Part shown: one piece after another, positions 1-4,800 of the stretch
Position numbering within the stretch: position 1 is the first letter of the stretch
Layout of the letters: every line of letters begins with the position of its first letter
Origin: Lophium mytilinum
Taxonomy: Eukaryota
Assembly: GCA_010093605.1 (NCBI GenBank)
Contig: MU004184.1
Span: forward strand, 506,801-570,800
DNA: 64,000 nt
Direction: 5' to 3'
Notes under the pieces: model-generated
Told to the model about the DNA's origin: nothing
The model's input: the letters and a program-made list of their open reading frames with translations, nothing else
Database searches by the model: none
Program-made: the position numbers and the translations under genes

Positions 1-947
1 GGCCTTGACGACGGCGTTCTTGGGCGTAATGCTGCCATCAGTGCTGACGCGGAGCTCGAACATCGCGAACAACGGGTGCGGGACCTTGTACGCGGCGAAC
101 GTGACGCGGTCGTCCTTCAGCAGACGCGCGGTGATGAGGTTGCCCAGCGTGTGATCCTCCTTGTTGAAGGTGAAGGTCACGGTGTTCGGGATGCCTGGGG
201 ATGGGTGTTAGTCAGGGCCATGCAGATCAGGTGACGCGCGAGAATGTTTTGATGACGTAGTGAGGAGGGTGAGGGCAGACGTGAGGATGCGGGGATGGAT
301 GGGTGGATGGATGGGCGACTTACGGGTCTCTTCCTTCTGCTCGACCTTCTTCTCGCCCTCGGCGAGCAGGAACGTCTCGAACCTGTCCGGGATGTCAATG
401 CTGCCCACCTCGTTCAAGGTGTTTTCGTTTGCGTGGACGCCGGGCTGGAACGGAGCCATGAGGTTGTAGTGCTCTCGGTTGCGGTGCTGGGTGTCGGGGC
501 CGGTCAAGGCGGGGGTGCTGGTCTCGTTGTGTTCCGGCATGCTTGCTCTTGATGCGCGATCTGGTGATGAAGGAATGGGAAGTGGTGATGGAGTGATTGA
601 GTGACACGCACGAAGCAGGAGTGAATTGATTGCTTTGACAGTGGTGAAGACACAGAAGGAAGGTGGTGTTGTTGTGAGGTGGAGGAGGAAAGGAAAGGTC
701 TGGCGGGGGAAATTTATAGGCCAGCAGACGGGCGAGTGCGCGCTCCGGATCAACACGCCGCTCCGAAGCTGCGCACCTGCTCCGGATCACTGCACCACGC
801 TGCCGCTGCCGCCTCGGGGAAATGTGTGATCGGGAGGGGTTGAGATCGCGCATCGGCATGCCGCACCGCACCGAGAGAGCTTCTTCGCCGAGTTCGCACC
901 GGCCCGGGCGTCCACACGTGGTTGACGTACCTGTCAGGGGCGTTCAT
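1..947 (-). CDS. RPB11: DNA-directed RNA polymerase II subunit RPB11 (3' end runs off the window). Exons 947-931, 382-324, 194-<1
   Basis: Spliced translation MNAPDR|FETFLLAEGEKKVEQKEETR|IPNTVTFTFNKEDHTLGNLITARLLKDDRVTFAAYKVPHPLF carries the RPB11 signature (KEDHTLGN, YKVPHPL). Introns 930-383 (GTACGT..CAG) and 323-195 (GTAAGT..CTAAC..CAG) keep the frame. Confidence 0.93.
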
Positions 948-984
948 CTTGACGGCTGATGTCTGATGTGCTGTGGAGGGATGT

Positions 985-1409
985 CTAGAATAGACTGTCA
1001 GCGGGACAGTCCATGGGGGGGTCCGCGATTTGGGGTCGTACAGGTTGAAATTTGCTTGTCAGGTGACAGCGTTGGAGGTGTGCCTATCCATTATCATTAG
1101 CCACAGGTCTCTCATAATAGGCGTCCCATACAGGGTGACCAGGCATGTATGAGCTGGGGGAGGTACTGGGGGAGGTGGGCTTGGTGGGAGGTCGTAGATT
1201 CAAGGCCATTGGCCAGCGAGATGGGGGGATGGATGAGGACGTGTAAACAGTCCTAGGGGTGCAGAGACAGGAGGGAAAGAGACGACAGGAGAGTGCATAT
1301 GAGAGTGAGGAGGTTCGGGCAGATGAGGGAGCTCGTGAATCAGGACGCTGGCCCGTCGGATTGCGCCCGGCGACGCAGCGACGGGGAGAGGGAGAACAGG
1401 GTATCTTAC
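985..1409 (-). other. Two putative 5'UTR introns of RPB11 (1409-1084 and 1041-985)
   Basis: Minus strand: GTAAGA...GCTAAT...TAG (326 nt) and GTACGA...GCTGAC...TAG (57 nt), directly upstream of the RPB11 ATG. Confidence 0.55.
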
Positions 1410-1863
1410 AGGTCAAGGATGTCGTGGACGAGGTACAGACTGGAGTGTGTGGAGTGTGCAACGTGGACAGAGCGTGGTGTGGAGGGGGTGAAGCTGTCGC
1501 GGTGATGTTGGAGGATGAAGAAGTGAGGTTGGTCGCGAGTCAGAAGGCGCGGGACATTCTTTGTGGTTTGTATTACATACACACCGCTAACCCCCCTGCG
1601 CCAATCATTCGCGGGCTACACAGTCTTGGTAGGACCGAGGAAGCACCCTAGTAATACATTCTGCCGCCCCAAGACCCCTGCAGATGCCCTATGATACTCG
1701 ACAAGCCATGCACTGCCTCCAAGACGCTCAAGAAACCTCCAAGACCCTCCTAGCCTGCATGTAGGACTCAAATAGTCCTTCCAACAGCAGTCCACCGAGC
1801 TGCAAGCCTTGCAGCGTTGCGAGCGTGCCTGCAGCTTGCTTGCTCCGTCAAACCTGCCTCCTC

Positions 1864-4800
1864 TTAGCCTATGACCCTCCCAGCGACCGGCGGCCCGCTC
1901 TTGTCCTTCGTCTGCACCTTGCGAAGGCCCTTGCCCGACTGGATTTCGCCCAAGAGGCCTCCGATATTGGGTACAGCAGCCCTTGGGGCTGGCGGCATCC
2001 CTGGCGGAGGCGGAGGGGCGCCCCCTGTCGGCATGGGTGGCGGGGGCGGGGCACCGCCACTTGGCATCGGCGGGGCGGGCGGAGGACCCGTTGGCGACGC
2101 AACAGCAGGACTCTCAGCGCGAGGGCTCTTATTATCCATCGACGACAGCGGACGCGGCGGCGCCATGGTGCCAAAGAGGATTGAGGCCAGCTGCTTGGCG
2201 TTGCCCGCGCCGGCCGGGCGGTCATCGTCATCCGACGAGTCGTCGTTGTCGGAATCCACCACACTCCACTCATCCTCCTCCGGCCGCGCACGAGTACGAA
2301 TCGACGGAACAGAGGGCTCCGCAGCTGCCCGCGCATTCGACTCCTGCGTCAAACGATGGAACGGGTTCGTGGACACTTCGCTGGTGTTGCTGGGTGGGGG
2401 TGGGGGAGTTGGGATACTGGCAGCCTCGGAGGACTGCGCCATCTTCTTCAGGAACGGGTTCTTGGTCTCAGTATCAGTCATGCCAGCGTGCGGGCTAGTT
2501 ACTGAAGACGCAGGAGGGCTGGTGACTGAAGAAGGGGGCGTGATAGCCTGGCGCGGCACCGGGGGTGCTGCTGGAGGCATCGGCGGCGCAGCAGGGGGCG
2601 CGCTCTCCCTCTGCAACTCCTGACTGGCGGTAGGCGTGGTCTCCAGGGGTGTAATCTCCTGGGGACCTTCGTCGTCTGAAGAATCGTCGTCGTCGTCGAG
2701 GCTCTCAAGCTGGAGCTGCAGCTGTCGCTCCCGTTCCCTCGCTGCTTCAATCTCTGCTCGCTGAGCCGCCAGTCTCGATTCCTTCTCTTTCGCCTCCTTT
2801 TGCGCGGCATGCTTCCTTCTCTTCTCTTCTGCTTTCTGAACTTTCCCTTGCTTCACCTGCTCTTCCAATGCGCGGAGTCGGGCCTGAGCCGCCTCCCTTT
2901 CCTTTGCCAAGTCTTCTTCTTGGCGTCGCTCCTCATCCCTAGACTTTTGTTAGTCTCGCATACTTCATACAGATACATTCCTAACTTACTCCATCCTCTT
3001 CGTCTCAGCTTCCTGCGCATCCTGCTGCTCGCGCAACGCGTTTTCTGCGCTTTCATGCTCAGCTCTCTTCGCCTCCGCTTCCGCTTGCTTCACATCATTC
3101 TGCGCACTATCGGCTTTCCCCTTTCGCACAGGGGGTGGCGGCGGCCCAGGCTTCTTCGGAGATGCCTTGGTAATAGTAGGCGGGCCTGCATGTTCTTCAG
3201 CCAGTCTTCGCTGCCTCTCCTCTTCTCGCCGAGCGTCTTCTTCCTCAGCTTGTCGAAGCTTCTCTTCTCGTTCTTTCTTCTCCCGCTCTTGTCGCTGCTG
3301 CGCATTCTCACCAGACTTGACAGGTGGGCGAAGTCCCAAAGCCGCGAGTCTCTCCGCCATCTTCTGCTCCGCCTGCTGCTTAATGAACGCCGCACGCTCT
3401 TCTGCAGTCTTATATGACGAGTAATTCGATCCCCCAGCCGGCGTGGGAGTCGCCGAAGGGCGTGACGTTGGCTCAGGGGTTCGGGCCGGGCTTTCATAAC
3501 GCGACGCCGACGCCGATCTCGCCGAATCTTCGGCACGGGGAGCCGATCCATAGCGATCTCCCGACTTACTGCCAGGTAGGTTAGCATAAGGTTTGCACGT
3601 GACTTTGCGGGCTACCCACTCTTCCTTGCGGATCCTCGTCGAGCGACTGCTGCGCTGGAGATCGAAGATGAAGTCCTTGACGTCTTCCTCCACGCCGAGT
3701 CCATCTTCCCAGCGACGACGCTCATGTTCACTGCTGGCATCATGCCCACCGTCTTTGAGGCTGTCCACCAAGCTCTTGCTGTACTCCGTGACGCTGTCCT
3801 CAACATCTCTAACCATGCGTTCGTTGTTTTCTTTCTCAGTTCGGACACGAGAGTTCTCTTCTTCAACGCGCTTGGCGGCCGCGCCAGCATCGTCTTGACT
3901 CTTGGGTGCAGGCTTGCCGGTCAAAGCAGCAGAGCGCGCTTCCATCATTGCCTTTGCGCGAGCCTTGAGGCGATCGGATTCAGTCACAGAGCCCCCTGGG
4001 CCGGTACCGACGATTGGCGCTCCCGAGTTGGGATGCGCTTTAGCATCTTTCAGTCTGAAAAGTTCAAGTTTGGCATCCGCGATCTCGCGTTCTGCGCGAC
4101 GCACGTCCGATGCAAGTTGTGGCAGGCGATCAGTCAAGCCCTGGAGCTGTCTGCGAAGAGTTCTCCGTTCCGCATCAGACTCACCCGAGCGCATAGATGC
4201 GCCAGGGTGGCTGTCGATGTCTTCCTGCACACGTCGAATGCGACGATACAAGTCATCGGCCTCGCGTCGGTCTCGGCGGTCGAGGGCGTCGTCTTCGTCC
4301 GCACGGTTCTCGTCCTGAGTGTCTAGCGCGTCGAGGAGCACCTGTTTTTCTCTGACTGACTTGCGAAGCTGATCCACGGAGAGCTCGTCTGCTGATCGTT
4401 CAGATGCCGGGGAGGTCGGGGTCGCTGGGGATGGCGAACGGCCGCCAGCTCCGAGGCGATGACGTGCACTAGAGCGATACCCGACGTTGTCATCGTTGTT
4501 CTTGAAGACCGTCGCGTCTTTGCGACCGCTGCTGATGGGGCTGCCTTGACGGAATGAGTGCGACTTAAGATAGCTGACACCAGTACGCTGTGGTTGGAGG
4601 AATGCCCCGGTGTTCTTCCTCTCCTCCGCATCCCGAGAGAGCAATGATTTCATAGTGCCGATCGATTCGTTAAAATTTCGAGTCGATGGTGGCACTAATT
4701 CAGGGGGAAGGCGATTCGGCACGGGATAGCCGTTGAGCTTGCGGTAGATTAGATGCATGGCGACGGCAAACTCGTCGAGGTTGAGGCGGCCCCTATCGGC

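Follow-up and report, generated by a model that had tools for sequence, protein, structure and literature searches.

A probable alternative first coding exon inside the first coding intron of RPB11 in Lophium mytilinum

Among the subunits of RNA polymerase II (Pol II), Rpb11 usually counts as an unvarying part of the scaffold. The RPB11 gene of the fungus Lophium mytilinum raises the question of whether its long first coding intron holds a second beginning for this protein. We analyzed a window of 64,000 nt (assembly GCA_010093605.1, contig MU004184.1, positions 506,801 to 570,800 of the forward strand); all coordinates are window positions, RPB11 lies on the minus strand, and the 5′ part of the gene falls within 1–2000. 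A first-pass annotation had proposed a micro first exon (MNAPDR, 947–931) spliced over a 548-nt intron and, inside that intron, a TATAAAT (718–712), a pyrimidine-rich leader and an ATG at 540 in frame with exon 2. The exon and intron coordinates proved correct, and the three internal elements are all present as described. From reading phase, codon composition and related loci, we conclude that the intron probably contains an alternative first coding exon.

The gene is RPB11 with its Rpb3/Rpb11 dimerisation domain: P0003, the 149-residue model deposited for this genome, matches PF13656 (RNA_pol_L_2) at 8.3e-28 (96 bits, cut-off 27) and PF01193 at 4.7e-9. Two public RNA runs with matching contigs, X1 and X2, were aligned to window 1–2000. 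The X1 contigs are 100% identical to the window and derive from RNA, because they are spliced; X2 is a soil metatranscriptome whose pieces on RPB11 differ from the window by 0–3 letters each and which reproduces the 548-, 57- and 326/327-nt joints. The canonical joint runs from 931 to 382, skips 548 nt with GT..AG borders and has a depth of 2359 in X1; the identical joint occurs in X2. The micro-exon reads ATG AAC GCC CCT GAC AG (947–931) and is followed by the donor GTACGT at 930; the acceptor CAG occupies 385–383, and exon 2 begins at 382 with G TTC GAG ACG TTC CTG. The canonical N-terminus MNAPDRFE, as in fungal orthologues, is thus present in the spliced RNA form.

The intronic reading frame and its codon signature

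The ATG at 540 opens a 53-codon frame (MPEHNETSTPALTGPDTQHRNREHYNLMAPFQPGVHANENTLNEVGSIDIPDR) that begins MPEHNETST, ends IDIPDR and continues uninterrupted into FETFLLAEGEKKVEQKEETR, which starts with FETFLL. Read from the sequence, the extended product would carry 52 residues in place of the MNAPD of RPB11, a net gain of 47 that agrees with the approximately 47-residue extension predicted earlier. The same annotation had seen in the acceptor's IPDR a mimic of the canonical APDR. Literally this is so—the acceptor codons ATT GAC ATC CCG GAC AG|G (from 400) parallel ATG AAC GCC CCT GAC AG|G of the micro-exon—but across the nine related loci that bear an equivalent open reading frame (ORF; see below) the residues before the acceptor vary (YENR, DYDR, DECR, GEFR, YECR, IPDR, NTTR). 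Only the final R is constant, because the splice-site AG| fixes it.

The codon-position composition of this frame is that of an exon. Over 540–382, GC content at codon positions 1, 2 and 3 (GC1/2/3) is 0.58/0.42/0.89, alongside 0.65/0.25/0.90 in exon 2. The leader (699–541), read in the ORF frame, has no such pattern (0.49/0.60/0.40), and composition is flat in the 5′ part of the 548-nt intron (0.64/0.67/0.71 in the ORF frame), in the 326-nt intron of the 5′ untranslated region (5′UTR) and in intron 2. The GC3 excess of the ORF, 0.39, was reached in 0 of 20,000 shuffles of the ORF; in 30-codon sliding windows, an excess of 0.33–0.40 appeared solely from 540 downward and solely in the exon-2 frame. 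Noncoding DNA has no reason to show such periodicity, so the signature is direct evidence from the window itself: Coding constraint acts, or acted until very recently, on the stretch from ATG 540 to the acceptor.

Related loci, the nearest relative and deposited models

A metagenome scan with an alignment of twelve extension-bearing N-termini, its patterns placed in exon 2 and its matches confirmed by tblastn with an extension-bearing query, gave 12 loci (L001–L012); an earlier scan with an alignment of the window and Mytilinidion resinicola had given 591 pattern matches, none of them confirmed. L011 and L012 were dropped as RPB11 loci, since their frames lack an RPB11 exon and matched query residues 35–69 alone at 41–43% identity; they encode an unrelated protein (..RLADYSRAISEKA.IDALQYAGAI.GDSEKEI.LIDEGQ.KVESKE..). 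The ten retained loci are Pleosporales-like—Pleosporales being an order of Dothideomycetes with many plant-associated species—and L006 equals L007 over the compared stretch. All ten have a micro-exon ATGAAYGCNCCNGAY(A/C)G|GT, an intron of 341–456 nt and an acceptor AG|(G/A)TTCGAG, and nine of them have an in-frame ATG-initiated ORF of 37–69 codons ending at that acceptor. The 5′ two-thirds of these introns cannot be aligned between loci; the last ~140 nt, which bear the ORF, do align. Global pairwise identities of the intron parts were uninformative apart from their gap counts, because gap-rich alignments inflate identity.

Codon-level selection was measured by a Nei–Gojobori count over 35–37 codons in six loci (L001–L006), leaving out L007 (duplicate), L008 (frameshifted), and L009 and L010 (unalignable). 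Over the ORF stretch these six differ by whole codons only. L003 and L004 are separated by 9 synonymous and 1 nonsynonymous changes, and L001 and L002 by 15 and 8; among L001–L004 the proportion of synonymous differences (pS) is 0.42–0.78 and that of nonsynonymous differences (pN) 0.01–0.15, with P values of 4e-6 to 9e-5 in binomial tests against the share of synonymous sites. Variable sites at codon positions 1, 2 and 3 number 21, 17 and 31 of 35. For the four close pairs, pN/pS is 0.03–0.21 in the exon-2 frame versus 0.94–2.5 in the other two sense frames, and the exon-2 frame is the only one free of stops in all six loci. Antisense coding was rejected as the origin of this codon pattern, each antisense frame having stops in at least two of the six.

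With a pN of 0.07–0.14 for exon 2 in the same loci, constraint on the core of the extension is close to that on a real exon. At the protein level the micro-exon is invariant across the related loci, and its codons carry synonymous changes; taken together, the two patterns indicate that both first exons are under selection in Pleosporales-like fungi. The GC3 excess itself is uneven among relatives. It was reached in 0 of 5000 shuffles in L001 and in 1 of 5000 in L010 (GC3 0.80 versus 0.54/0.46), whose tail cannot be aligned with the others; it was at the 2–5% level in L002, L003, L005 and L006, and not significant in L004 (1315 of 5000) or L009 (561 of 5000).

Parts of the extension coincide with splicing signals. 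In L001–L006 a conserved H-K-A-D block is written CAC AAR GCT GAC and includes a branch-point-like CTGAC ~19 nt from the acceptor, and the final R of the extension is spelled by the AG of the acceptor together with exon 2's first base. On the aligned sequences, the H-K-A-D bases would be a splicing signal in one mRNA and codons in the other.

The nearest relative found, Mytilinidion resinicola, was compared as a protein model; it differs at 8 of 123 residues of the common body. This model (P0002, 284 residues) misses the micro-exon and reads through the homologous intron, so its alignment documents conservation of the entire intron, ~859 to 383, between the two species. With the window translated as a virtual protein, the upstream part is 53% identical with gaps and a frame change, and the leader, ORF and exon 2 together are 65% identical. 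The ORF keeps its ATG and its frame, the sole indel being one codon long, and both species have the blocks QHRNR, APF.PGVHA and NEV..IDIPDR. The best-conserved intron blocks lie upstream of the ORF: 16 of 18 virtual residues at 859–806 (MPMRDLNPSRSHISPRRQ in the window, MPMRDPNPSRSHLSPRRQ in Mytilinidion) and 13 of 16 around the TATA box (LLAYKF versus LLAYIF). The TATA box may itself be kept in Mytilinidion, although TATAT.T fits only if the Tyr codon is TAT.

Among the deposited models, P0003 starts with MAPFQ at 459 and misses the RNA-supported 17-nt coding micro-exon. A protein search with P0003 listed 120 RPB11 proteins; among 122 collected, 30 start with MNAPDR directly before exon 2, 62 have another N-terminus of 7–119 residues, 2 run from MNAPDR into the intron and 28 fall outside the simple pattern used, counts that represent annotation outcomes, not biology. 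Many deposited Dothideomycete RPB11 models differ likewise, and so do models of one genus: in Curvularia and in Plenodomus there is a 130- and a 163-residue form. The Pleosporales models have a common gap-free motif, roughly ..IGQLIE.NPN..LRD....R.V.HKAD.D...R|FELFLL. In two models of Pyrenophora teres (P0059, P0062) the exon-2 frame encodes an unrelated peptide, which, to judge by its make-up and a back-translation by hand, may be a frameshifted copy of this motif.

Outside Pleosporales, two rock-fungus models have intron-encoded N-termini of the form ..DPRI.GN.GTK.DV..D.PPDR, and two Acarosporaceae lichens ..KNP.LN....AEENI.PR; similarity at the family level there involves proteins P0083, P0101, P0084 and P0124, and P0096 and P0116. 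These sequences hint that the arrangement may extend beyond one order. A protein search with P0003 residues 1–46 found only P0003 itself among 2 candidates, and one with the 182-residue read-through frame matched Mytilinidion and the genome's own model and nothing further. A representative-set search with the 73 residues of ORF plus exon 2 gave two matches. As homologues of the tail, a 2272-residue repeat protein (NEN..NEVGS repeats) was judged a chance match; the 79-residue ORF P0124 owes its match mostly to exon 2.

Transcript units and competing explanations

We propose two nested transcript units (Table 1). The distal unit, established by the RNA joints, starts between 1515 and ~1619, loses both 5′UTR introns and is spliced from 931 to 382, with translation beginning at 947 (MNAPDR). 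In the internal unit, the mRNA would start within the intron, downstream of the TATAAAT. Such a transcript lacks a donor ahead of the acceptor at 383, which would therefore be read through as codons; the first AUG of the transcript would be that at 540, and the frame would continue straight into exon 2. The product would be an RPB11 with 52 residues for MNAPD, a predicted disordered tail and an unchanged dimerisation domain. We infer the internal start from the TATAAAT, its conserved surroundings, the ATG-free leader and the position of 540 as first AUG; the leader (711–541) is G-poor, so its want of ATG, checked by eye, is weak evidence. A TATATA(T) also lies ~90 nt ahead of the ORF ATG in L003 and L004.

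That the ORF is translated by one route or another appears likely. The full reading, which adds a putative transcription start inside the intron to the alternative coding exon, is the one toward which we lean. The earlier claim of a second isoform made from an internal promoter accordingly divides: The ORF behaves as coding, by GC3 in the window and by selection in relatives, and the internal promoter stays a candidate. That this promoter is inducible, or that it serves a variant polymerase or a regulatory switch, would be speculation.

Table 1. Features in the 5′ part of RPB11. Exon borders with one or two ambiguous aligner bases were placed by GT..AG; for example, a G fits at both 323 and 194, and the border is set at 324.
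Feature	Position	Strand	Basis and remarks
Distal 5′UTR exon	1410–1515	minus	Minimum extent; X1 contig 3 (1409–1515, joined to 1082), end set by GT..AG
5′UTR intron, 326 nt, GTAAGA...ATAG	1084–1409	minus	Joint 1082 to 1409, cut +1, depth 2568 in X1; also X2
Second 5′UTR exon	1042–1083	minus	Pieces of X1 contig 3 and X2 contig 6
5′UTR intron, 57 nt	985–1041	minus	Joint 984 to 1042, GT..AG, X1 and X2
Exon with canonical start	931–984	minus	ATG 947–945; coding 947–931 = MNAPD plus two bases of R
First coding intron, 548 nt	383–930	minus	Joint cut +2, depth 2359 in X1; also X2; absent from canonical mRNA
Candidate upstream promoter element	806–859	minus	Most conserved intron block versus Mytilinidion resinicola, 16/18 virtual residues
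Candidate core promoter TATAAAT	712–718	minus	Sequence
Pyrimidine-rich ATG-free stretch, presumed 5′UTR of internal transcript	541–711	minus	Sequence; no codon periodicity
Probable alternative first coding exon, MPEHNETSTPALTGPDTQHRNREHYNLMAPFQPGVHANENTLNEVGSIDIPD then R	383–540	minus	ATG 540–538, 52 codons, in phase through acceptor into exon 2
Second in-frame ATG (MAPFQ...)	457–459	minus	Start of the genome's deposited model; Mytilinidion reads IRAPFA, so ATG not conserved
Candidate branch point TTGAC, 13 nt before acceptor	394–398	minus	Within codons I-D of the alternative exon
Exon 2, common to both forms, FETFLLAEGEKKVEQKEET plus R	324–382	minus	X1 contig 1 piece 323–387
Intron 2, 129 nt	195–323	minus	Contig pieces (X1 contig 1, X2 contig 6) with ends at 193 and 323
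Exon 3, dimerisation domain, continues past window edge	1–194	minus	RNA contigs and Pfam

For the distal unit, RNA contigs place the canonical start between 1515, the reach of the first RPB11 5′UTR contig, and ~1619, where the contig of the upstream neighbor stops; a previously suggested start near 1550 is consistent with both. The gap of ~100 nt means that the distal promoter is either very compact or overlaps the neighbor's 3′ end. Neither 5′UTR exon contains an ATG. Three introns ahead of exon 2, two of them in the 5′UTR, are unusual for a small fungal housekeeping gene. The neighbor (1864–2910, minus strand) encodes a 348-residue proline-rich protein with a C-terminal WH2 actin-binding motif (PF02205, 6.1e-7).

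Several observations weigh against the proposal of an internally started, tailed form. The ORF is of unremarkable length: In dinucleotide-preserving shuffles of the intron, which is C-rich and stop-poor, 1087 of 5000 (22%) gave an in-frame ATG-initiated ORF of at least 53 codons ending at the acceptor. In X1, the canonical joint exceeds intron cover by ~29:1. One 601-nt X1 contig (358–958) is unspliced through the whole 548-nt intron at a mean depth of 81, ~3% of the joint; because it crosses the border between exon 1 and the intron, at least part of it comes from DNA or from unspliced transcripts of the distal promoter. Both the internal transcript start and the tail peptide are so far unobserved, in a setting where assembled contigs cannot reveal RNA starts and rare forms drop out of contigs. 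Cover in X1 over the 548-nt intron, with none over 1140–1407 of the 326-nt 5′UTR intron or over 202–268 in mid-intron 2, was set aside as a sign of retention or internal transcription, since holes between contigs prove nothing.

The comparisons add further points on that side. The ORF is identical to Mytilinidion at 29 of 53 residues, no better than its flanks (53% upstream; 15 of 21 in the leader), so this pair by itself gives no protein-level signal. Between the window-type and the Pleosporales extensions, hhalign aligned just the last 6 residues plus exon 2, and Smith–Waterman comparisons with shuffles against other orders gave a signal in no more than 2 of 30 pairs (z = 3.7). Neither method thus supported a shared ancestry of the tails across orders; on the sequences compared, what is shared across orders is the arrangement, not the peptide. 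L008 (2246–2609) keeps the micro-exon and a 348-nt intron, and its ORF is frameshifted, its upstream ATG gone and only MDPENR left in frame, so a lineage can lose the ORF. Splicing signals account for part of the conservation, namely the H-K-A-D block and the final R; the synonymous pattern reaches well upstream of them. Finally, tblastn confirmation with an extension-bearing query could favor loci with a conserved peptide, a concern offset by L009, which passed on exon 2 alone, by L010, which matched from query residue 36, and by the placement of the scan patterns in exon 2.

On these grounds one may hold that the ORF is untranslated in the Lophium lineage—a chance frame, or the relic of an exon, in an intron kept for regulatory DNA or RNA such as an enhancer, splicing control or a noncoding-RNA promoter. 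The chance-attainable length, the excess of the canonical joint, the identity to Mytilinidion no higher than in noncoding flanks, the position of the best-conserved blocks upstream of the ORF, the missing homology to the Pleosporales peptide and the loss in L008 would all fit. We nevertheless judge it unlikely: GC3 periodicity like that of real exons sets in exactly at the ATG and is reached in none of the 20,000 shuffles, and a dead exon would lose such periodicity as fast as neutral change allows. Mytilinidion retains both the ATG and the frame, its indel being in frame, the equivalent architecture in relatives is under clear coding selection, and window 1–2000 has no Rfam match at E up to 1, for which reason an intron-hosted small nucleolar RNA was also dropped.

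The same extended protein might instead be made from the distal promoter, if the exon 984–931 were skipped and a 5′UTR donor (1042 or 1410) joined to an acceptor upstream of 540, e.g. at ~562. The coding evidence is silent on the mRNA route, the 5′UTR exons are free of ATG, and a pyrimidine tract plus CAG lies ~20 nt before ATG 540. No such joint occurs among the contig joints, though contigs lose rare forms; by eye, the 60 nt before 562 hold no CTRAY-type branch point; the Pleosporales loci have no conserved acceptor-like site ahead of the ATG; and the window, L003 and L004 each have a TATA element placed like that of a promoter. We regard this route as distinctly improbable.

Least credible, and in our view very improbable, is regulated intron retention with an incidental ORF, in which unspliced mRNA, stopping soon after MNAPDR, would be degraded and so tune RPB11 dosage: The unspliced contig 358–958 does span both intron borders at ~3% of canonical depth, and the frame of the retained intron, read from ATG 947, meets a stop at 750, 65 codons on, but 3% of unspliced RNA is ordinary and perhaps partly DNA, and retention leaves unexplained both the codon periodicity in the exon-2 frame and the synonymous/nonsynonymous selection in relatives. 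Unspliced RNA with a premature stop can, in any case, coexist with an alternative exon.

Taking the alternative-exon reading as preferred, we considered what the tail might do. Pfam has no match in the extension and finds the Rpb3/Rpb11 dimerisation domain alone, in the body. An AlphaFold2 model of the extended Pleosporales form (29-sequence alignment) has predicted local distance difference test (pLDDT) values of 38–51 over residues 1–50 and 75–95 over most of the core, which points to a disordered tail with short conserved motifs. The Rpb3–Rpb11 platform, at the back of Pol II, is where assembly of the enzyme nucleates, and it contacts Mediator. Our guess is that the tail modulates assembly, stability or partner binding of this platform through short motifs.

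A wider generalization is tentative: Dothideomycetes, and perhaps other Pezizomycotina, may make two Rpb11 forms from nested starts—the MNAPDR form and one with an intron-encoded, lineage-specific disordered tail, whose branch point and acceptor serve as codons—and the tailed form might enter a variant Pol II or a free Rpb3–Rpb11 module under particular conditions or life stages. If so, Pol II composition would be variable in Pleosporales-like fungi, and the locus would offer a clean test case of an intron-hidden exon in which splicing signals and codons coincide. Among deposited RPB11 models of Dothideomycetes, many are wrong or incomplete, either missing the 17-nt micro-exon or reading through the intron.

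Comparison with known systems

Gene-model errors at micro-exons offer one comparison: P0003 and P0002 both miss the 17-nt coding micro-exon. Model error fails to explain the signals described here, because neither the coding signature nor the selection analysis depends on annotation. A search of full-text literature, with subscription journals and supplements outside it, turned up no account of an N-terminal isoform of fungal RPB11.

The human POLR2J (hRPB11) forms come from duplicated genes and differ at their C-termini; a 2019 study by Proshkin et al. reportedly concerns hRpb11b-alpha and ATF4. As in the fungal proposal, several Rpb11 forms occur in one organism, and in human an isoform-specific partner has been proposed. 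Unlike in human, the fungal RPB11 would be a single gene whose forms differ at the N-terminus only.

Among alpha-like subunits, the available parts of a 2026 review (PMC13374769) describe a disordered N-terminal extension for AC40 alone, do not contain the word "fungi", and carry the hRpb11 isoforms just in the reference list. AC40, the Rpb3-like subunit of Pol I and Pol III, has its disordered tail before the dimerisation domain, with a regulatory role proposed (PMC13374769, same excerpts). The AC40 tail is constitutive, whereas the RPB11 tail would be optional and would sit on the small (Rpb11) partner.

A further parallel is the alternative first exon. Alternative starts give N-terminal isoforms in yeast SUC2 and in two-start tRNA synthetase genes. 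A micro-exon switch is described for Trichoderma Xlr2 in the accessible excerpts of PMC11121469. As in these fungal cases, RPB11 would have one gene, two 5′ ends and two N-termini on a common body, with a micro-exon involved. It would differ in that its second exon lies inside an intron removed from the canonical mRNA and abuts the acceptor, so that the splice site serves as codons; in that the protein is a core Pol II subunit with no evident targeting signal; and in that the second form is predicted from sequence. Alternative first exons are thus a known arrangement; what would be new here is their occurrence in a core subunit of the polymerase, where the splice signals would also encode residues.

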